The notes under the pieces were generated by a model. The model was not told the DNA's origin. It did not search any database and worked only from the letters and a program-made list of their open reading frames with translations. 58,562 nucleotides of DNA from a virus (Duplodnaviria; Caudoviricetes). Of this stretch, positions 2,925 through 47,788 are shown piece after piece. The position numbers and the translations under genes are program-made. The stretch lies in IMG/VR virus record IMGVR_UViG_3300002461_000269, positions 1-58,562 of that record; one strand, given 5' to 3'. How positions within the stretch are numbered: the stretch's first letter is position 1; each line of letters starts with the position of its first letter.

Positions 2925-3763
2925 GTAACCCGCTCAAGGCAGTCGGCAAGGTCTTCAAGAAGGTGGTGAAGGTCGTCAAGAAATACGCCCTGCCGATCAT
3001 TGCGATTGGCGCCGTCGTCCTGACCGGTGGCGCCGCGCTCGGCATCCTGCCCGCCCTGGGAGGTGCGGGCGGATTGCTTGCCGGCATCGGGATTAAGGGG
3101 GCGCTGGCAGGGGTGCTAGTCGGCGCGGCGAAGGCTGCGACGTTCGGCGCTATCGCGGCCGGTGTGACCGGCGGCAACATCATCAAGGGTGCTACGACTG
3201 GCCTCATCACCGGCGGCGCGCTGGGTGGCCTTAGTGCTGCGCTGGGCGGCGGTGCGGCGGCGGCGGGTGCGGGTGCGGGCGGTCAGGCGGCGAGCGCTGT
3301 TGCCAACACCGCAGCAAATGCGCCGGGCGCTGTCGCTGGCGCGGCGGGCAATGTCGCGCATAGTGCGATTCAATCTGTTGGTAGCGTTGCCAGCAATGCA
3401 GCATCGAGCGGCCTTAGCGCGGCATCGGGCATTGCAGGCTCGGCAGGTATCGTCGGCAGCGCTGCGCTTCCAGTTTCCTCCGCAGGCGGCATCGGCGGCT
3501 TTATCTCGCAGAACCCCACGCTTGTTGGTTCGGCCATTCAGGGGCTCGGTTCGGGCCTTGGCGCCAAGGCGCAATCGAAAGAGGACCGCCGCGCGCTCGA
3601 CCTTCGCCGTGCAAGCTACCTCGGGATCGGGGACGCTCTGTATTCGGCACAGCGGGAAGAAACCGATGGGCTGGGCCCGCTACTCGCACAGGGCCAGGCG
3701 CCAGTGAACGGCGGCAAGGTGCGTTACGATCGCGCCACCGGCCAGCTTGTCGCTGTCGGTTAA
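2921..3763 (+). CDS. Gly/Ala-rich ejection (pilot-like) protein
   Basis: Basic amphipathic N-terminus (KVFKKVVKVVKK) followed by long Gly/Ala hydrophobic segments. Confidence 0.65.
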   Translation: MSNPLKAVGKVFKKVVKVVKKYALPIIAIGAVVLTGGAALGILPALGGAGGLLAGIGIKGALAGVLVGAAKAATFGAIAAGVTGGNIIKGATTGLITGGALGGLSAALGGGAAAAGAGAGGQAASAVANTAANAPGAVAGAAGNVAHSAIQSVGSVASNAASSGLSAASGIAGSAGIVGSAALPVSSAGGIGGFISQNPTLVGSAIQGLGSGLGAKAQSKEDRRALDLRRASYLGIGDALYSAQREETDGLGPLLAQGQAPVNGGKVRYDRATGQLVAVG

Positions 3764-5125: not shown

Positions 5126-8100
5126 ATGGCCGGCCGTGACCTCCTTGCGGGGATTCCGCGAGACGAGCTTCTGTCTGCCAGCGAACGCTTGCGCGCCAAA
5201 GCCCCCCAAGGCCGCGACCTTCTTGAAGGTGCGAGCGAGGGTGACTTGCGCGCGGCGGAAACACGCTTGCGCGAGCGCGCGGCACGCGACGAGGAAGCCA
5301 AAGCCAATCGGGAGAGCGCAGCCGAGGCAGCGCGCCGCCCCTCTGACCCCGGCGTAGGCTCGCTCCTTGGGCTTGGCAGCGCGCGCCGCCCTGCACCCGC
5401 AGCCGGGCCGAGCAGCTTCTTTGCCAGCGAGCGACCCGTTGCAGCAGAGCGCGAGCAATTCCTTGCCGAGAACCGCACCCGCGTTCCCACCGGCGAGATT
5501 AAGGCCGACAACTACATCGAGCAGCAGGCGGCCAAGATCGGTCAGGCTGGCCTTGGCCTTGCCGCCGGCGGTGCGCGCGCCGTCATCGCGCTGAGTGACA
5601 AGCTGCAACGCAATATCGGCGTCTTGCCCGGCGACCAGGCAGCGCGCGATGTGCTCACAACCTTTGCCGAAGACTCCGAGATCACCGCAGGCCGCCGCGT
5701 TGAAGGCACCACCTCGTTTGAGGACGTGAAGGAAAACCCGCTGCTGGCTGGCAAGTTCATCTTGGATGAAGGCCCGGCATCACTGGCGATCACGCCGCTG
5801 CTGCTTAATCCCTATGGGGCTGCGGCGGTTGGCCTTGGCACCGCAGGCGGCATCGCGCAGGAGCGCGCCGTCAATGATGGCCGCACCGAAGCCACGGCAG
5901 GCGACCTTGCCGTAGCAGCGCCGTTCGCAGCCGGGAGCCTGGCGCTCGACAAGTTCGGTTTCGATCGGTTGCTCAACCCCGGTTCGGGGGCGCTTATCAC
6001 CCGCATCCTGAAAGCGGGCGGCACCGAAGGCCTGACCGAAGGTACGCAGGGCGCGCTTGAAAACCTTGGCGGCTCGCTGGGTACAGAGCGCGGCGTTGAT
6101 TTGAACGAGCTGCGCGACAGCATCACCGCCAGCGCTCTTGTTGGCACCGGCGCAGGCGCAGGATTCCGCGGCGGCTCCGAAGCCGTTGACGCCACCGCGA
6201 AGGCAATCACTGCACGCCGCGCTGCACGCGCCACCATCACGCCCGACGACGAGGCAAGCCCGCTCGACACTGCCGACATTGAGGCAGGCCGCGCCGCACA
6301 GATCGAGGTCGAGCTAGGCAAGCAGCAGAGCAGCAACATCGAGCTTCCCGAGGTGGGCGGCCGCGTCAACGTGCTTGTGCCAGGCTCATCGACCCCGGTT
6401 GAGGGTACCTTTGCCGGTTCGTTCTCCGATGCGGATGGCGCCGGGATCGAGGTTATTCTCTCGGACGGCCAGACCATCCGCGAATACAACGACAACATTG
6501 AAGACGCCGGTTACAAGATTACCCCGATCCAGTCGGCCGCGAGTGGAAGCGCCGCCGCTGGCCCGGCCGCGCCTACTGCCAGCCCTTCGGTTCGCACCGG
6601 ACAGCAATCAGGCGCGGCCGGATTCGATATGGGCCGCTATCAGGCACAGAACAGCCAGATCGAAAGCGGCAACCGGCCCTACATCAAAGCTGACACGTCA
6701 TCGGCAAGTGGCCTGTTCCAGTTCGTCAAGAAGACATGGATTGCCGAGGGCGGCGCATGGGGCAATGACGATAGCCAGGCGTTCGGCGGCTTGAAGCCAT
6801 CGGCCGAGGAGCAGCGCGCCCGGTTCAAGTCTTTCACTGACAAGAACGTGGCAGGCATCAAGGCGATTGGCGCACCGGTCACCGACGGCAACGTCTACCT
6901 TGCGCACTTCCTCGGGATGGGCGGCGCGCGCTCGATCCTTGGCGCTGACCCGAACACGCCAGTGGCGCAGCTGCTCAAAGACGACCAGATCACCGCGAAC
7001 AAGAGCATCCTCAAAGGCAAGACCGCCGGCGACGTCATCGCCTGGGCCGCGCGCAAGATGGGCGGCGCGCTCCCCGCGCAGGCAGGCGGCGAGAGCTTTG
7101 CCGCGCCTGATACCGAGCGCGAACCCTTCGAGTTCAGCAACCGCGACGAGCCCGAGGCCGCAGCACCGGCCCTGATTGGCAAGCCTATCCCGCTGCGCGT
7201 CGAGGACCGTCAGGAAACCGCCGTGGTTCCCGCCACCTTGCAAGAGGTGCCGGTGCGCTATGCCGTGGCCGAGCTTGCGGATCTCGTCCCGTCCAACACC
7301 CCTGACGGCGCAGTGAACCCGGCATTCCCGGCCGAGCGTCAGCCCCGCGACCGTACCCGGGCCGCCAGTCAGAACCAGGTGCGCAACATCGCCACCAACC
7401 TTTACCCGCGCCTGCTTGGCCGCGACGTGAAGGCGAGCGACGGCGCCCCGATCATTTCCGCCGATGGTGTGGTCGATAGCGGCAACGGCCGCGTGATGGC
7501 GCTATCGCAGGCCTATGCGCAGGGAGGCCAGCAGGTCGACGCCTATCGGGCAATGCTCGAAGAAGAAGGCTTCGACGTAAGCGGCATGACGCAGCCTGTC
7601 ATGGTGCGCGTGCGCGATGAAATGCCGGCCGCCGATGTGGCGCGGTTCGTGCGTGACAGCAATGCGCGCTCCACCGCCAGCATGTCCGGCGTCGAGACGG
7701 CATCCACCGATGCAGCGAGCATGGGCTCCAACCTCCTCGGGCTTTACCGCGGCGGCGACCTCGACACGTTGAACAATTCCGATTTCGTGCGCGGCTTCAT
7801 GCAGGCATTCGTGCCGGCCAGCGAAGTTGGCGACATGGTAATGAAGGACGGCCGCCCATCGGCCAACCTCTTGCGCCGCATCGAGGCCGCGCTCCTGGTG
7901 CGCGCGCTGGGCCCGCAGAGCTTTGTCGAATGGCTGGTTGATTCCCGGTCGAGCAAGATCAAGTCGATTGGCAACGCGCTCATCGAGACGTCGGGCAAGC
8001 TGGCGCAGATGCGCGAGGCAGCAGCACAGGGCATCATTGACCCGTCGGTCGATATTTCCGCCAACGTGGCCGAGGCGGTGACGCTGGTTGACCGTGCACG

Positions 8101-36373: not shown

Positions 36374-36457
36374 TGCGCCTCGCGTTGACCCTGACCACCG
36401 CCTTCACAGGCATGACATTTTTACTGGCGCTCGGTGCGCTGATTGGGAGAATTTGAG

Positions 36458-37204
36458 ATGGAACAGACGATTGAGAAATATGAAGTCCGCAGCCGCTGGT
36501 CTGGTGTGGTGCAGTTCACGGCTGAAATCTCGGTAACGCCCGATATGCTGCCGAGCGTCAAGATGGGATTGGCCGTAAAGTGGGCGAGCAAAAACGATGC
36601 CGACCTGAGCGGTGCCTACCTGAGCGGTGCCGACCTGAGCGGTGCCGACCTGCGCGGTGCCGACCTGAGCGGTGCCTACCTGAGCGGTGCCTACCTGAGC
36701 GGTGCCAACCTGAGCGGTGCCTACCTGAGCGGTGCCAACCTGAGCGGTGCCTACCTGCGCGGTGCCTACCTGAGCGGTGCCGACCTGAGTGGTGCCTACC
36801 TGAGCGGTGCCTACCTGCGCGGTGCCGACCTGAGCGATGCCGACCTGAGCGGTGCCTACCTGAGCGGTGCCGACCTGCGCTTCATTAAGTCCGATTTTTT
36901 CATGATCCTTGCAATGGGCCACGGCGAAGTTCTGCATTTGATTAACGCGCTGCGCGATGGCCGCGTGGACGGTTCAACCTATGAAGGCGAATGCGCCTGC
37001 CTTGTCGGCACGCTGGAAAATGGCGGCGCTACCGGCATTCCACATCAAGCATCTTCGCCCGCTGAGCGATGGTTTGTGCCGATCCGCAAGGGCATCAAGC
37101 CGGGTGACGATAACGAGGGTGGCTTTCGTTCCGGGAAGGCTCTCGAATGGGCGCTGGAATATGTGCGTCTGACGGGGATCGAATTGAAGGAACCCACCCA
37201 ATGA
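36458..37204 (+). CDS. Pentapeptide repeat protein
   Basis: 19 A(D/Y/N)L(S/R)G-type repeats and a C-terminal domain with [18 protein letters not shown]. Confidence 0.92.
36599..36883 (+). repeat. 15-bp tandem repeat x19
   Basis: Unit GCC(G/T/A)ACCTG(A/C)GCGGT, near-identical copies. Confidence 0.95.
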
Positions 37205-38754: not shown

Positions 38755-38937
38755 ATGACACCGCACCAATTCCGCTCTGCGCTCAAGACCCTCGGGCTGA
38801 CCCAGCACACCGCCGCTGCCGCCCTTGGCATGGGCAAGTGGGGCTTCCAGTCCGTCGGCAAGTGGGTGCGCGGCGAACACACCATCCCGGCGCCAATCGT
38901 CGACAAGATCAACGCCATGCTGGAGCAACAGGGCTGA
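38755..38937 (+). CDS. Small XRE-like HTH protein
   Basis: MTPHQFRSALKTLGLTQHTAAAALG...SVGKWVRGE..IP. Confidence 0.8.
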   Translation: MTPHQFRSALKTLGLTQHTAAAALGMGKWGFQSVGKWVRGEHTIPAPIVDKINAMLEQQG

Positions 38938-39533
38938 TGGCACGGAAGCCCGCCCCTCGAACACCGGCCAAGCGCAAGCCCAAGGAGCAGCCCGAGCCGC
39001 ATGGCCCGAAGCTGACCGACGACATGCGCGCCTTCATCGTGGTGCAGCTGGCTTGCTATCGCTCGCTCACCACGGTGCAGAAGCAGATCAAGGACCGCTA
39101 CGACATTGAGGTCAGCCTGCCAGCGATTTGCCACTATGATCCCGCGACCCGTTCACAGGCCGCGCTCAAGTGGGCGCCGCTCTACGACGACACGCGCGCC
39201 AGGTTCATCGAGGAATTGCAGCGCCGCCCGCTGTTCCACCAGGCCTACCGCCTAGACGAATTGCAGCAGACCATCGACGCTTCGAAAGAAATCATGCTGA
39301 CCGGCACCGAGGGCAAGCTCGATGCGGCCGAGCAGATCCGCAAGGCAGTCGAGACAGCAGCCAAAGAGGTTGGCGGCGTCTTCACCAACGTGAAGAAGGG
39401 CTCGCTCGAATTGACGGGCTCGATCGCTGTGTCGACCGACGAGAAGCGCAACGTGCTCGAAGACAAGCTCAAGGATATTATCGAGGGCCGCTTCACCGAC
39501 ATGAAGCCCGCCAAGCGCATCGAGAAGGGCTGA
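38937..39533 (+). CDS. terS: Terminase small subunit (DUF2280-like)
   Basis: FIVVQLACY...YDP, TRARF, YRLDEL, AAKEVGGVFTN. Directly upstream of TerL. Confidence 0.82.
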   Translation: MARKPAPRTPAKRKPKEQPEPHGPKLTDDMRAFIVVQLACYRSLTTVQKQIKDRYDIEVSLPAICHYDPATRSQAALKWAPLYDDTRARFIEELQRRPLFHQAYRLDELQQTIDASKEIMLTGTEGKLDAAEQIRKAVETAAKEVGGVFTNVKKGSLELTGSIAVSTDEKRNVLEDKLKDIIEGRFTDMKPAKRIEKG

Positions 39534-39534
39534 C

Positions 39535-40374
39535 GTGGGTTACCGCGACGAGCTATTCGCAGTGCTGGAGCGCGGCGCAGCTGCGCAAGGCCTCGACCTG
39601 CGCGAGCTTGACGTTGGGCAATTCCTCGCCGGCATGGACGACGCCACGATCGAGGCGCTGCTGGCACCGATCCAGCAGGAGGAGCAATTCCTCCGGTTCA
39701 ACAAGTTCAAGCTGTTCTTCCCCGACGAGACGGTCGAGAAAGGCGGGCAGACTTTCCACAGCCGGCACCAGTACCCCAAGCACATGGAGTTCTTCGCCGA
39801 TGGTGCCGAGTTTCGGGAGCGCCTGTTCATGGCGGCCAACCGTGTTGGGAAGACGATCGCCGGCGCCTACGAGGTCAGCGCGCACCTGACCGGGCAATAT
39901 CCCCACTGGTGGCCGGGGCATCGGTTCAAGAAAGAGATACGCGCCTGGGCGGCCGGCGACACCAACGAAACCACGCGCGACATTATCCAGCTAGAGTTGC
40001 TGGGCAACGTCATCGGCGGGCTCGACGGGCGCAAGGGCGTGGACGGCTCCGGCATGATTCCGCGCGAGTGCATCGGCCCGATCAAGTGGAAGCAGGGCGT
40101 GCAGGATCTTGTCGATACCGTGGGCATCAAGCACAAGGGCGGGCGCCTGTCCTGGCTGGCGTTCAAGTCCTACGATCAGGGCCGCCGCTCCTTCCAAGGC
40201 ACCGCCAAAGAGGTGATCTGGCTGGACGAGGAATGCCCGGTCGACGTCTACGGCGAGTGCCTCATTCGTGTGGCGACGACGCGCGGGCTGCTGCTGACCA
40301 CCTTCACCCCCCTGACAGGCCTCACCGAGTTGGTCCTGTCGTTTCTCAATGATAGCGAAAGGCCAATGGCATGA
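39535..40374 (+). CDS. terL: Terminase large subunit, ATPase half
   Basis: Walker A AANRVGKT, Walker B IWLDEE, coupling motif TFTP. Stops after LVLSFLNDSERPMA. Confidence 0.92.
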   Translation: MGYRDELFAVLERGAAAQGLDLRELDVGQFLAGMDDATIEALLAPIQQEEQFLRFNKFKLFFPDETVEKGGQTFHSRHQYPKHMEFFADGAEFRERLFMAANRVGKTIAGAYEVSAHLTGQYPHWWPGHRFKKEIRAWAAGDTNETTRDIIQLELLGNVIGGLDGRKGVDGSGMIPRECIGPIKWKQGVQDLVDTVGIKHKGGRLSWLAFKSYDQGRRSFQGTAKEVIWLDEECPVDVYGECLIRVATTRGLLLTTFTPLTGLTELVLSFLNDSERPMA

Positions 40375-40454
40375 GCAAACACCCCTTCGACGAGCTGAAA
40401 GCAGCCATCCACGCCGACCCCGAGGACTTCTACGCCAAGCCGGAGGACGAATGA
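40371..40454 (+). CDS. 27-aa acidic peptide in terL insert
   Basis: MSKHPFDELKAAIHADPEDFYAKPEDE*, ATGA-coupled at both ends. Confidence 0.5.
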   Translation: MSKHPFDELKAAIHADPEDFYAKPEDE

Positions 40455-40669
40455 TGCGCAACCCAATCCGCACATTTCTGCTCCGTCGCCGCCTGCGCGA
40501 GCTCATGCCCCGGCGGCGGGACACGCTGTTCCGCTTCCACCTGAAAGCGCGCCGCATGATGATGCTCCGATCCTTTGGCGAGGTGCGCCCGATCCCTGCG
40601 CCCACTGGTGAGACGATCAAGTTCAGGCGCTCGCCGTCGTTCAGGGTGGAGGGCGCGGGCGATGAGTGA
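40451..40669 (+). CDS. 72-aa basic protein with capsid-like segment
   Basis: GGAGG RBS. LRSFGEVRPIPAPTGETIKFRR aligns without gaps to the major capsid protein. Confidence 0.6.
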   Translation: MMRNPIRTFLLRRRLRELMPRRRDTLFRFHLKARRMMMLRSFGEVRPIPAPTGETIKFRRSPSFRVEGAGDE

Positions 40670-40778
40670 GGCACTGCGCCATCTGCGCGCGTTTCTATTC
40701 CCGCCCTCGATCCATCGGCAGAAGGTCGATGTGTCGAACCGTATCCGCGCGCTCCACGGACTCCCTCCCCTGCGCTAG
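40662..40778 (+). CDS. 38-aa peptide in terL insert
   Basis: GGAGG upstream. MSEALRHLRAFLFPPSIHRQKVDVSNRIRALHGLPPLR*. Confidence 0.4.
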   Translation: MSEALRHLRAFLFPPSIHRQKVDVSNRIRALHGLPPLR

Positions 40779-40866
40779 TCCCCATAGGACGTAATTCACA
40801 GCCGCCCCTTCCCCTAATCGGAAGACGTATCGTATACCGACAACCCACCGCTTCGGAGGGTAATGG

Positions 40867-41616
40867 GTGGCGCGCGTCACAGACAGCAAGGCAATGGTGC
40901 AGGCAGGGTGGGACGACGTTCCGCACCTCGACCCCGCGACCAAGGCGGAAATGCTCGAAAGCATTCCGCCGCACCTGCGTGACGCCCGCACCAAAGGCAC
41001 GCCGTCATTCGGCTCCGGTGCCATCTACCCCGTCGTTCAATCCGAAATCATCGTCCCGCCGTTCCAGATCCCGAAATGGTGGGCCAAGGGCTACGGGCTC
41101 GATGTAGGCTGGAACAAGACCGCAGCCATCTTCGGCGCGCACGACCGCGATTCCGATGTGGTCTATCTCTACTCCGAGCACTACCGCGGGCAGGCCGAGC
41201 TATCCGTCCATGCCGAGGCCATCAAGGCGCGCGGTGCATGGCTGCGCGGCGGTATCGACCCGGCCGCCGCAGGCTCCGGCCAGCGCGACGGGCAACAGAT
41301 CCTCTCCAACTACCGCGACCTCGGGCTTGACGTCATCCCCGCCGACAATGCCGTCGAAGCCGGGCTGCAAGTCGTGTGGCAGATGCTCTCCACCGGAAAG
41401 CTCAAGGTCTTCTCCACCCTTCACAACTGGCTGGGCGAACACCGCCTCTACCGCCGCGACGAGCGCGGCCGCATCGTCAAGGAACGCGATCACCTCATGG
41501 ATGCCACCCGTTACCTCTGCATGATGCTGGGCCAGGTCATGCAGGCGCCGCCGGTTGCCAAGTTCGGCAATGACGAAACCACCTTCAACATTGCCAGCAA
41601 GATCGGGGGCTACTGA
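40867..41616 (+). CDS. terL: Terminase large subunit, nuclease half
   Basis: AGWDDVPHL, GSGAIYP, GLDVGW, IDPA and DHLMDATRY. Has its own GGAGG RBS. Confidence 0.9.
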   Translation: MARVTDSKAMVQAGWDDVPHLDPATKAEMLESIPPHLRDARTKGTPSFGSGAIYPVVQSEIIVPPFQIPKWWAKGYGLDVGWNKTAAIFGAHDRDSDVVYLYSEHYRGQAELSVHAEAIKARGAWLRGGIDPAAAGSGQRDGQQILSNYRDLGLDVIPADNAVEAGLQVVWQMLSTGKLKVFSTLHNWLGEHRLYRRDERGRIVKERDHLMDATRYLCMMLGQVMQAPPVAKFGNDETTFNIASKIGGY

Positions 41617-41617
41617 C

Positions 41618-44074
41618 GTGGACGATAACGGCACCATCATGGCCTATGACGATCCCGATATGCCCGACGATATGGGCAATCAGCGCAAGGAAACGCCGCA
41701 GGAGCGCAAGGCCCGGCAGCGCTGGCAGAAGGTGCAGGACGCCGCCGAACCGATCATTCGCAAGCTGGCCGCCCAAGCACGCGAGCAGATGAGCCTGCGC
41801 GGTTCGATCGAGCAGCGCTGGCTTGAGGATCTTCGGCAGTTCCATGGCGTCTACGACAAGGAAACCGATACCGAGCTAAAGAACGACGACAGCCGTTCGC
41901 GCACGTTCATCAACATCACCCGGCCCAAGACGAACAGCTGGGCCGCGCGCCTGGGCGACATGCTCTTGCCCAACGACGAGCGCAATTGGGGGATCGATCC
42001 CACACCCATCCCCGAGTTGAACAGTGAGGCGCGCGAGATTGCGCGCATGGCCGAGGAGGCCGCGCAACAAGCCGAGCAGGCGACCGAGCAGCACAACGCC
42101 AATGTCGACGAGGGCGGCAATCCCAACGCCACCATGCCAGAGGTGCAGGCCAAGGCCACCGCGGCAAAGGAAATGATGGACCGCGCCAAGCAGCAGCAGC
42201 GCGAGATTGAGGAAGCCACCAAGCGTTGCAAGGCCATGGAGCGGTTGATCGACGATCAACTGACCGAGAGCCGCTTCCCGGCCCGGTGCCGCGATGCCAT
42301 TGCCGATATGTGCAAGCTGGGCGTCGGCATCATCAAAGGCCCGATGGTCAGCGGCAAGCAGCCCCAGCGCTGGCAGGTCGACGGGCAGGGCAATGCCGTG
42401 TTGCAGCCGATCACCGATCAGAAGGTGCCGACCTATCGCCGCGTCAATCCCTGGCACTTCTTCCCCGACATGAACGCCGGCGAGATTGAAGACGCCGAGT
42501 TCACCTATGAGCGCCACCTCCTCAACGCCAAGCAGCTGCGCAAGATGGCGAAGGATATGGACTTCAACAAAGGCACGACGCGCAAGCTCTTGGCCGATGG
42601 CGGCGCGCAGCACGGTGCCGAGAACGTCACCGACCTGTCCTATCTGTCCGAGCTTCGCAACATGGAGCACCACGGCAGCGAGAGCGCGCTATCACCGCTC
42701 AAGGACCGCTACGTCATTTGGGAGTTCCACGGCGCGCTGGAAATCCATGAGATTGCCAAGCTGGTGCGAGCCATGGGACAAGAGGACGAGGCCAACGAGT
42801 ACCTCAAGACCGCCGACCCGCTCGACGTTCGCATGGTCACGGTGTTCTTCTGCAATTCCAAGCTCCTCAAGATCAACGCCGAATACATGCTGGATTCCGG
42901 CGCTTCGCTGTACTCGATCGCCAGTTTCGAGAAGGCCGAGGCCACCATCCTTGGCGCCGTCGGTGTGCCGCGCCTGATGCGCCACGAACAGGCGATGCTC
43001 AACTCGGCCGTCCGCATGGTGATGGACAACGCCGCGCTATCGGTATCGCCGCAGGTGGTGGTCGATCAGAAGGGCGTCGAGCCGGTCGACGGAAGCTGGA
43101 AGCTCAAGGCCCGCAAGATTTGGCGCAAGATCAGCGGCGGGCACGCCAACCCCAATTCGCCGCCGTTCGAGCTATTCAATATCCCGCTCAATCAGAACCA
43201 GCTGGCGCAGATCATCGAGCTTGCCATGCGGTTTGTCGATGAAGCCGTGTCGATGCCGCTCATCGCGCAGGGCGAGCAGGGCGCACACATCACGCAGACC
43301 GCCAGCGGCATGACCATGCTGATGAACAGCGCCAACGTCGTGTTCCGCCGCGTGGTCAAGAATTACGACGACGACATGATCGGGCTGATAATCCGAACCT
43401 ACGACTTCAACATGCAGTTCTCGAACCGGCCCGAGGTCAAGGGCGACATGAAGGTCGAGGCGCGCGGCACATCGGTGCTGCTGGTGCGCGAAATCCAGGC
43501 ACAGCAATTGCAGATGATCCTGCGCGAATGGAGCGTGCACCCGATCATGGGCGTGGGCTTCCGCGCGTACCAGGCAATGAAGCTCGTCTTGCAGGCCATG
43601 TCGATCAACCCCGATGATCTTCTGATTACCGAGGAAGATTACATGAAGAAGCTCGCGCAGATGGCGCAGCCGCAGGACGGCGAGGAGCAGCAGGAAAGCG
43701 CCGATCAGATCCGCGCGCAGACGCAGCTGCAAATTGCCAACATCGAGGCCGCCAACCGCGAGAAGGACGGCCAGGTGCAGTTGCAGATTGCCGAGATCCG
43801 CCGCGAAACCGAGTTCGCCAAGCTCGGGCTGCAAGAGAACCTCACCTTGCAGCAGATCCAAGCCATGTTTGCGACCAAGGAAATGGACGGCGCGGTCAAG
43901 GTCGAGAGCACCCGCATCAAGTCGCAATCCGACGAACGCAAGCTCGCTGCCGAGATTGGCATGGAGCGCGAAGCCGCACGCGAAGCCCGCGCCCGGGGGG
44001 AAATGCCCACCGGTTCGGGCGGCGCCGTGTCGATGGGTGGCCGCAAGGCGCCCGCTAACACCAACCCCCAATGA
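41618..44074 (+). CDS. Portal protein (P22-like with C-terminal helical barrel)
   Basis: ~820 aa after terminase. FINITRPKT, PWHFFPD, QTASGMTML and a Gln-rich coiled-coil C-terminus. Confidence 0.88.
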   Translation: MDDNGTIMAYDDPDMPDDMGNQRKETPQERKARQRWQKVQDAAEPIIRKLAAQAREQMSLRGSIEQRWLEDLRQFHGVYDKETDTELKNDDSRSRTFINITRPKTNSWAARLGDMLLPNDERNWGIDPTPIPELNSEAREIARMAEEAAQQAEQATEQHNANVDEGGNPNATMPEVQAKATAAKEMMDRAKQQQREIEEATKRCKAMERLIDDQLTESRFPARCRDAIADMCKLGVGIIKGPMVSGKQPQRWQVDGQGNAVLQPITDQKVPTYRRVNPWHFFPDMNAGEIEDAEFTYERHLLNAKQLRKMAKDMDFNKGTTRKLLADGGAQHGAENVTDLSYLSELRNMEHHGSESALSPLKDRYVIWEFHGALEIHEIAKLVRAMGQEDEANEYLKTADPLDVRMVTVFFCNSKLLKINAEYMLDSGASLYSIASFEKAEATILGAVGVPRLMRHEQAMLNSAVRMVMDNAALSVSPQVVVDQKGVEPVDGSWKLKARKIWRKISGGHANPNSPPFELFNIPLNQNQLAQIIELAMRFVDEAVSMPLIAQGEQGAHITQTASGMTMLMNSANVVFRRVVKNYDDDMIGLIIRTYDFNMQFSNRPEVKGDMKVEARGTSVLLVREIQAQQLQMILREWSVHPIMGVGFRAYQAMKLVLQAMSINPDDLLITEEDYMKKLAQMAQPQDGEEQQESADQIRAQTQLQIANIEAANREKDGQVQLQIAEIRRETEFAKLGLQENLTLQQIQAMFATKEMDGAVKVESTRIKSQSDERKLAAEIGMEREAAREARARGEMPTGSGGAVSMGGRKAPANTNPQ

Positions 44075-46768: not shown

Positions 46769-47788
46769 ATGGCAATTTCCACTTATGGCGACATTGGTTC
46801 GCGTACCGCTGCCTACGCAGCAAAAGAGTTCCTCAAGCACGTTATGCCTACCCTGGTGCTGTCCAAGTTCGGCCAGACCAAGCCACTGCCGCGCAACAAG
46901 ACGCAGACGATCAAGTTCCGTCGCGCTGTCCCGTACCCCGCCGCGCTGGTGCCGCTGCAAGAGGGCGTAACCCCCTCGGTCAGCGGAACCTCGTTCGAGG
47001 ACGTGACGGTGCAGCTGCTCCAGTGGGGCGACGTGCACGGTCTGACCGACGTGATTGCAGACACCCACGAAGATCCTGTGTTGCAGGAAATGATGATGCT
47101 GTCGGGCGAACAGGCCGGCCGCACGATCGAGCAGGTGATCTACAACGTCGTCAAGGGCGGCACCTCGGTGTTCTATGCCAACGGTGCATCGCGCGCCGCG
47201 GTGAACACCACGATCAGCCTCAACAAGCAGCGCGCGGTCACCCGCTTCCTCAAGGCTCAAAAGGCCAAGAAGCTGACCAAGATGCTGTCGGGCTCGGTCA
47301 ACATCGGCACCACGCCGATCGAGGCTTGCTATGTGGCGATCACCCACACCGACCTTGAACCGGACATTCGCAACCTGGCCGGCTTTGTGCCTGTGTCCAA
47401 GTACGGCACCATGTCCCCCCTGTGCCCCGAAGAAGTCGGGACCGTCGAGGAGGTGCGCTACATCACCTCGCCGGATCTTGAGCCCTTCGAGAACGCAGGC
47501 GGTGCGCCGGGTTCGACCGTGCTCTCGACTGGTGGCAGCAATGCCGACGTCTATCCGGTGCTCTACTTTGGCGCCGAGGCTTATGGCCTCACGCCGCTGG
47601 GCAACTCGAAGGACAGCATGGGCGCATCGAACCAGCCTGTGAAGCCGACGGTCATCAACCCGAACACCCCGAGCGCGAGCGATGTGCTCGGCCAGCGCGG
47701 CTACGTCGGTTGGAAGACCTACTTCAACGCCGTGCGTCTCAACGAGACGTGGATGTGCCGCCTCGAAGTGGCCGCTTCCGCACTGTGA
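46769..47788 (+). CDS. Major capsid protein, N4-gp56 family
   Basis: TYGDI, FGQTKPLP..TIKFRR, LQEGVTP, DVYP, DVLGQRGYVGWK. Confidence 0.93.
   Translation: MAISTYGDIGSRTAAYAAKEFLKHVMPTLVLSKFGQTKPLPRNKTQTIKFRRAVPYPAALVPLQEGVTPSVSGTSFEDVTVQLLQWGDVHGLTDVIADTHEDPVLQEMMMLSGEQAGRTIEQVIYNVVKGGTSVFYANGASRAAVNTTISLNKQRAVTRFLKAQKAKKLTKMLSGSVNIGTTPIEACYVAITHTDLEPDIRNLAGFVPVSKYGTMSPLCPEEVGTVEEVRYITSPDLEPFENAGGAPGSTVLSTGGSNADVYPVLYFGAEAYGLTPLGNSKDSMGASNQPVKPTVINPNTPSASDVLGQRGYVGWKTYFNAVRLNETWMCRLEVAASAL

Follow-up and report, generated by a model that had tools for sequence, protein, structure and literature searches.

A rare mini-protein gene in the gap of a two-gene phage terminase carries a capsid-derived tail

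IMG/VR record IMGVR_UViG_3300002461_000269 is a 58,562-bp genome of a Caudoviricetes virus (Duplodnaviria) whose completeness is rated 99%, and the whole of it forms the window analysed here. Its large terminase (TerL) is encoded by two genes, and between them lie three small open reading frames (ORFs; herein orfA, orfB and orfC) that are chained through overlapping stops and starts: the stop of the N-terminal TerL gene overlaps the start of orfA (ATGA), the stop of orfB overlaps the start of orfC (ATGAGTGA), which has a GGAGGG 9 nt upstream, and orfC is followed by an 88-nt leader and then by the C-terminal TerL gene (table 1). The subject of this report is orfB, which runs for 72 codons from an ATG at 40451 (a second ATG stands at 40454) to a TGA at 40667-40669. 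It lies in the cargo slot of a naturally split terminase, is coupled to the upstream ORFs by start/stop overlap and has its own Shine-Dalgarno sequence, the GGAGGA at 40442-40447 that a first-pass annotation of this DNA had described as a strong ribosome-binding site and that is indeed present. The same annotation had placed orfB inside a terminase insert; the position is right (TerL halves at 39535-40374 and 40867-41616), and what gives way is the idea of a one-off disruption, the gap being a slot that recurs across the phage group. The encoded protein has two parts, a conserved Arg-rich N-terminal half predicted to be helical and a capsid-homologous tail.

Table 1. Coordinates of the features at the terminase locus, and of the capsid gene, in the 58,562-bp window
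Feature	Position	Strand	Basis or remark
TerL N-terminal (ATPase) gene, 279 aa	39535..40374	+	PF03237 Terminase_6N, E 1.8e-16, profile 1-153/215
orfA, 27 aa, acidic, translationally coupled	40371..40454	+	codon score 0.97
GGAGGA Shine-Dalgarno of orfB	40442..40447	+	read from sequence; 3 and 6 nt before two ATGs
orfB, 72-aa mini-protein	40451..40669	+	rare 68-72-aa family: P0001, P0002, P0126, P0127, P0128
orfB Arg-rich N-terminal half, motif LLRRRL..L.P.RR...FR....AR	40451..40543	+	family alignment; predicted two helices
orfB capsid-like C-terminal half	40544..40669	+	homologous to capsid profile positions 24-57(-64): N-arm helix end, linker, first beta-strand
14-mer common to orfB and the capsid gene (46905-46918), part of T-I-K-F	40611..40624	+	exact match
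orfC, 38 aa, coding status ambiguous	40662..40778	+	codon score 0.08
Variable stretch, 321 nt, orfB codon 3 to orfC stop	40457..40777	+	skipped or replaced in X7 contig
Untranslated leader of TerL C half	40778..40866	+	GGAGGG 6 nt before GTG 40867
TerL C-terminal (nuclease) gene, 249 aa	40867..41616	+	PF17289 Terminase_6C, E 1.1e-11
Major capsid protein, N4-gp56 family	46769..47788	+	TIGR04387, 330 bits; PF25209

The case for capsid homology is carried by profiles that find each other in both directions. A hidden Markov model (HMM) built from residues 1-100 of 119 other capsids, with the window's own capsid excluded, matched among 1422 six-frame segments the capsid (5e-50) and, as the only non-capsid match, the orfB frame (7.7e-6), the next-best segment (0.038) being the antisense of the capsid gene. 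In the reverse direction, an HMM of the orfB family (described below) was run against 18262 six-frame segments from 159 related loci (1.03 Mb): all 18 matches at E <= 0.0025 were capsid gene starts (best E 1.9e-8), the next match (0.064) was again a capsid gene start, and no member of the orfB family was found in these loci. Two curated capsid models are, moreover, the only matches of orfB in libraries of 18950 and 38880 families, both of them weak: the N4-gp56 capsid model TIGR04387, its sole match in NCBIfam (E 0.0091, orfB residues 33-66 on profile positions 22-55), and the major head protein family phrog_1357, its sole match in PHROG (E 0.036). The profiles show that the tail of orfB, some 33-40 residues long, shares ancestry with residues about 24-57 of the N4-gp56-type major capsid protein (46838-46939 in the window's own capsid gene), orfB residues about 32-64 following the pattern L..FG..(K/R)P.P.....T(I/V)KFRR..(F/Y), and the capsid-derived tail proposed by the first-pass annotation holds. 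In a model of the capsid (mean predicted local distance difference test score, pLDDT, 76.7) the N-arm helix spans residues 11-28 and the first strand residues 47-53; solved capsid structures match only capsid residues 69-333, a range outside which the N-arm falls. Relatives of the capsid are present in records of Sphingomonas and Sphingopyxis.

The pairwise likeness from which this started, 11 of 22 identical residues without gaps between orfB (LRSFGEVRPIPAPTGETIKFRR) and capsid residues 31-52 (LSKFGQTKPLPRNKTQTIKFRR), is correct in coordinates and letters. BLASTP of orfB against the window's own capsid gives 11 of 25 identical and 18 of 25 positive positions (31.6 bits; E 5e-7, calculated for the pair alone), and a six-frame search of the 58.6-kb record with orfB returned only orfB itself and the capsid (E 3.1e-4). 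The idea that a short Arg/Lys-rich stretch resembles the capsid by chance, without any shared origin, is highly improbable and close to refuted. In its favour, the match is short (22-49 residues), no Pfam match to orfB was found, and the 14-mer AGACGATCAAGTTC, which was correctly reported as exact at 40611-40624 and 46905-46918 and is the sole orfB 14-mer recurring in the window, is by itself at chance level; it adds nothing beyond the protein match, because 14-mers that recur elsewhere were found in 536 of 1167 windows of 219 nt and, given identical T-I-K-F residues, identical codons have a chance of about 0.15 under this phage's codon usage. What chance would leave unaccounted for is the specificity of the profiles both ways, the two curated capsid models as sole library matches and the independent capsid matches obtained from two relatives of orfB (P0126 and P0128, below). 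The protein similarity, as judged from these comparisons, goes beyond chance.

At the DNA level, the insert resembles the phage's own scaffold/capsid junction over only 18 of 20 nt, and a recent self-duplication of that junction was ruled out on this ground. Two further candidate likenesses were set aside: a resemblance of orfA to the scaffold C-terminus (orfA had no tblastn match at E < 1 in 82 related loci), and a resumption of capsid homology in the orfC frame after a frameshift ('DV..HGL'; the other frames of the insert gave no match even at E <= 1000). No capsid homology was found for orfC, and neither orfA nor orfC matched a family in Pfam, PHROG or NCBIfam searches. With orfB the resemblance is confined to a segment: it shares with the N4-gp56 capsid (TIGR04387/PF25209) the N-terminal arm stretch of residues about 24-57, whereas it has 72 aa as opposed to about 339, lacks the E-loop, the spine helix and the P and A domains of the HK97-type core, and begins with 30 residues unrelated to capsid. 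Its TIGR04387 score of 15.3 bits lies below the cut-off of 60 and covers only positions 22-55 of about 324, so that by sequence orfB is to be regarded as a capsid derivative and not as a capsid protein.

The orfB protein of this phage (P0001) belongs to a small family. A word-indexed search retrieved a single homolog, P0002, 75% identical to orfB, and an exhaustive hmmsearch of 1.84 billion representatives added P0126 (68 aa, E 3.5e-16, 54% identical), P0127 (71 aa, E 2.5e-9, 48% identical) and P0128 (72 aa, E 9.1e-5, 47% identical). The first-pass annotation had proposed a search for homologs of orfB, whose absence would have spoken for a recombination scar, and these four relatives were found. 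One more hit, P0129 (282 aa, E 9e-4), was removed from the family as a low-complexity match within tandem repeats. The alignment of the five members has 17 invariant columns, aligned starts and no frame breaks, and every member stops 2-10 residues past the conserved aromatic residue of the tail. At E <= 3e-5, four of the five match the capsid HMM, P0126 (23.6 bits) and P0128 (20.7 bits) each independently, and capsid-invariant residues that orfB is missing survive elsewhere in the family (N43 in P0126 and P0128; H24 and P27 in P0128). Since different members keep different capsid residues, the family implies, at the level of sequence comparison, an older and more capsid-like ancestor that has been kept as an open reading frame of constant length.

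Codon usage points in the same direction. GC content at the first, second and third codon positions of orfB is 0.62, 0.51 and 0.84, as opposed to about 0.54 in the leader, and the codon score of orfB (0.26) exceeds those of all 135 spurious ORFs of the genome, although it lies in the low tail of the distribution for real genes, where 9 of 112 chunks have an equal or lower score. The score of orfA likewise exceeds all 135 spurious ORFs, and that of orfC is reached by 8 of the 135. The suggestion that orfB is a gene under selection thus finds support in the length, start and stop position kept by its relatives, in the capsid-profile matches of four of the five and in a codon score that beats the spurious ORFs. 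We regard a capsid-derived origin of orfB, together with its status as a gene, as highly probable, and the family as rare, previously undescribed and 68-72 aa in length.

The orfB unit may be joined to other sequence in one member of this family. Homology of P0002 to orfB starts at Met37 of P0002, and its residues 1-36 are similar to a hydrophobic ORF, 36 aa long, found in Synechococcus phages Ssp-JY40 and Yong-M3-232 (63% over 30 aa, E 1e-3; 3001-3111 of locus L086, PP438430.1). From its sequence P0002 would either have arisen by fusion of this 36-aa ORF to orfB or reflect read-through from one small gene into its neighbour; as its orfB part follows a Synechococcus-phage-like segment, the orfB unit is found behind different neighbours. 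Separately, a low-depth contig (2.81) of lake-water run X10 aligned over orfB (about 40460-40680) with four single-base deletions at 40557-40572; this contig could be a frameshifted relative, the capsid gene of another phage or a poor alignment.

The surroundings of orfB vary. A contig of run X7 is about 97% identical to the window as far as the 3' end of the TerL N half, where 679 other letters replace 40377-40414; it then shares 40415-40456 (the last 42 nt of the orfA region) and joins 40778, so that 321 nt are skipped or replaced. The breakpoints fall two codons into orfB (40456/40457) and inside the orfC stop codon (40777/40778), no convincing terminal repeats were found around the 321-nt stretch, and the first 31-38 nt of the leader of the TerL C half are common to X7 contigs. 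As so close a relative either lacks the stretch or has other sequence there, orfB appears to be an accessory, dispensable gene. The short shared stretches 40415-40456 and 40778-40815 flank the differing ones, and they may be linker sequences for the exchange of cassettes in the slot.

A survey of related loci, of which 80 came from IMG/VR and 2 from GenBank (82 in all), places this variability in a wider setting. Five loci held a single terminase half only and one had an odd gene order; among the 76 with both halves, TerL was fused in 26 and split in 50, the halves being separated by <= 60 nt in 26 loci, by 61-300 nt in 5 and by > 300 nt (up to about 3 kb) in 19, which leaves 24 split loci with a gap of > 60 nt. 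Cargo in these gaps includes Tad2-like domains (L007, L014), a protein of the N4 Gp49/Sf6 gp66 family together with a beta-helix protein (L023) and a tail-fibre-like protein (L070). No capsid-like piece was detected among 26 inserts of relatives (22,209 nt), the insert of the window showed no DNA similarity to the 82 loci, and orfA, orfB and orfC had no match to Tad2-like (PF11195) or other known anti-defence families in Pfam, NCBIfam and PADLOC searches. Taken together, the loci show that the gap of the two-gene terminase is a cargo slot and that this slot is a trait of the phage group.

We hypothesize that orfB is a real, dispensable small gene whose tail mimics a capsid segment. This explanation is the one we favour, tentatively and as something short of probable when it is taken whole, mechanism included, and the mimicry mechanism itself is likewise to be held as possible rather than probable. 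Under it, orfB would be a late product, expressed alongside capsid, scaffold and terminase, and would act as a micro-protein whose tail binds in place of the capsid N-arm and first strand at their usual site; that site could lie on an adjacent capsid subunit, on the acidic scaffold protein or on a capsid-recognising host protein. The Arg-rich helices might hold an acidic partner or nucleic acid. The first-pass annotation had suggested three roles, to be taken as candidates only: a decoy for capsid sensors, an inhibitor of assembly in competing phages or a packaging adaptor. Under the present hypothesis the role of orfB would be accessory, in competition or counter-defence and not as a core step of assembly, given that the stretch is missing or replaced in the near-identical relative.

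A number of observations weigh against this hypothesis, and several of them would be expected if orfB were instead a relic of recombination, that is, a segment from the 5' end of a capsid gene that was caught in a rapidly changing spacer, is read as an ORF by chance or through coupling, and yields an inert product (or, in a variant, one whose translation alone matters in that it keeps ribosomes on the 490-nt spacer and spares the TerL C half from polarity). The family is very rare, comprising five lineages that each occur on 1-6 contigs, and its members were absent from scans of IMG/VR, a metagenome set, GTDB genomes and GenBank phages; the matches were, moreover, drawn from a protein database that holds intact ORFs only, an ascertainment bias under which decayed copies are invisible. 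orfB itself lacks the capsid-invariant N43, the near-invariant K44 and the invariant P55, P62, L63 and E65, and reading through its stop raises the capsid similarity from 22.6 to 25.1 bits, a gain of 2.5 bits that a decaying fragment would also show. The first-pass annotation had seen a hint of selection in the family-typical residues that orfB keeps; for a single sequence this argument is weak, because such residues would be present in whichever capsid of the family had been the donor, and the losses just listed run counter to it.

Further features of the locus also suit a relic: the insert is a patchwork, as the replaced and skipped stretches of the X7 relative illustrate, the inserts of other relatives bear no resemblance to it, the distribution is very narrow, open frames come cheaply at 63% GC (133 ORFs of >= 40 aa in 13 kb), and the three ORFs are chained through overlapping stops and starts. 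The family nevertheless speaks for a maintained protein. Besides P0002 there are three homologs, 47-54% identical and matching in length, whose starts and ends align and whose frames are unbroken, the members keep different capsid-invariant residues and so point to an older ancestor maintained as a protein, and the codon score stands above all 135 spurious ORFs. Nor was a near-identical donor capsid recovered: none of the 77 candidates in the search for longer homologs matched at E <= 10, and the degenerate pattern FGEVRP(I/L)PA picked out 1 viral and 75 metagenome loci, all of them chance by tblastn and sharing the 9-mer only, with no capsid. On balance we consider a relic unlikely.

A second group of adverse observations concerns the division of labour between the two halves of orfB. 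The capsid-like tail is the less conserved half, with 3 of the 17 invariant columns of the family, and in P0127 the capsid signal is lost (E 23). AlphaFold2 predicts two helices in orfB (residues 4-17 and 24-41; mean pLDDT 63.7, predicted template modelling score, pTM, 0.26), leaves the tail on its own disordered (pLDDT 41-54), and the ESM Atlas model is poor (pTM 0.24) with no usable feature match. These results invite the reading that the Arg-rich helical half is the functional unit, a small nucleic-acid- or acidic-protein-binding regulator co-expressed with the packaging genes, and that the tail is an inherited appendage with little or no role as a mimic. Indeed, 14 of the 17 invariant columns fall in residues 9-33, P0127 retains the Arg-rich half, 17 of the 72 residues of orfB are Arg, and the helices are the better-predicted part (pLDDT 70-78). 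The description of the remainder of orfB as Arg-rich and unrelated is accordingly apt in its first word and misleading in its second, this being the best conserved part of the family. An inherited appendage would, on the other hand, hardly be expected to remain recognisably capsid-like in four of the five members at 47-75% overall identity, or to have every member end just past it, and no known RNA- or DNA-binding family was matched in Pfam, PHROG or NCBIfam. We judge this alternative, too, to be on the unlikely side. A complex prediction of orfB with the capsid scored 0.00 (mark 0.32) and weighs neither way. The same holds for expression, none of the 14 sequencing runs listed as carrying this DNA being of RNA.

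The last adverse point bears on what the tail would mimic. orfB is closest to capsids other than that of its own phage (up to 15 of 26 identical), its own capsid (11 of 26) ranking 51 of 140, and orfB is accordingly not a copy tailored to the capsid of its own phage. This nearness fits an action on rival phages and fits equally well an inheritance from a consensus-like ancestor. Returning to the mimicry hypothesis, its most specific form would make orfB a swappable micro-protein of the capsid N-arm that blunts a host sensor of the new capsid or poisons the capsid assembly of co-infecting relatives; we regard this form as quite doubtful on the sequences compared, the assembly-poisoning option being the one that the greater resemblance of orfB to other capsids of the family would fit. 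If true, either use would be the first natural capsid-derived mimic of its kind in a phage.

Several known systems resemble parts of this picture. Eukaryotic microProteins are small proteins related to the interaction region of a larger protein, and they block or divert that larger protein. orfB is likewise small and carries only the interaction segment of a larger oligomerising protein of the same genome; known microProteins and inhibitory fragments are engineered or eukaryotic. No natural phage protein made from a capsid N-arm is known to us, and our search of the literature on capsid decoys and fragments found none. That protein fragments can inhibit their parent protein through native-like binding is described in a published study (PMC10769210).

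Host recognition of capsid parts is the premise of a decoy function. In the classical case of the T4 Gol peptide and Lit, part of the capsid is recognised by a host sensor. The slot that holds orfB is moreover occupied in relatives by Tad2-like domains, that is, by anti-Thoeris domains; in known cases, however, the capsid or peptide activates defence, whereas a decoy orfB would block the sensor. CapRel-SJ46 binds the major capsid protein directly, according to one report (PMC9712102), and another describes staphylococcal Thoeris and other systems as sensing major head proteins (PMC13728456). No phage-encoded capsid look-alike that blocks a sensor is described in the parts of the capsid-immunity literature consulted. 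With capsid proteins being common immunity triggers and fragments of oligomerising proteins being able to inhibit, orfB is a concrete candidate for testing, and it raises the question of whether self-mimicry is a means by which phages control how capsids are sensed or assembled.

Satellites offer a parallel on the side of assembly: P4 Sid, SaPI CpmB and PLE TcaP redirect the capsid assembly of the helper, as scaffold-like proteins or external cages. They are small accessory proteins that act on capsid assembly, as is proposed for orfB, whereas no sequence relation to orfB was detected (PHROG, Pfam), they are not copies of a capsid N-arm, and orfB resides in a complete 58.6-kb phage and not in a satellite. 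With accessory 'moron'-type cassettes and two-gene terminases that carry cargo, orfB shares variable presence, breakpoints at gene borders, a ribosome-binding site of its own and a slot with changing cargo; it differs in having no detected promoter or terminator of its own, being probably read within the late operon, and in that the cargo consists of three tiny ORFs and not of a full-sized gene. The novel element, in an otherwise familiar kind of accessory small phage protein, is its construction out of part of a capsid. Should mimicry prove false, orfB still records how part of an essential structural gene gave rise to a new small gene, and the gap between the two terminase genes is still used by this phage group as a place for cargo, which in relatives includes anti-defence genes.

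As to the split itself, insertion of an intron or homing endonuclease into TerL was rejected for the window: no ribozyme was found, with no Rfam match at E <= 1 in 39000-42000, and orfA, orfB and orfC carry no endonuclease domain. A literature search for 'split terminase' found no paper, and the portions consulted of the literature on interrupted terminase genes contain intron and endonuclease cases only. In one relative, a GenBank podovirus (L001, MW202785.1), the 133-nt terminase gap holds a 46-aa ORF (6609-6749) that resembles the HNH endonuclease family phrog_99 (E 4.7e-5) and overlaps both terminase halves by ATGA. By its sequence this ORF looks like the remnant of a homing-endonuclease gene, and it hints at the origin of the split or of the slot; an HNH/AP2-like remnant was seen in this locus only.

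Signals and neighbours complete the description of the locus. A promoter and terminator scan returned 0 promoters and 2 terminator-like sites, as against 2.9 expected. The leader before the TerL C half (40770-40880) folds at -38.2 kcal/mol (z -2.35; 4 of 200 shuffles equally good) and, as the Shine-Dalgarno sequence of the TerL C half sits within the stem of this predicted fold, translation of that half may be regulated through it. The gene preceding TerL (38838-39533) matches DUF2280 (E 2.6e-17) and, judged by its position, is likely the small terminase. Upstream of the packaging genes, the ORF list shows at 36443-37204 an ORF of 253 aa in which pentapeptide-type repeats (A/D-L-S-G-A-Y/D...) follow one another over a long stretch.

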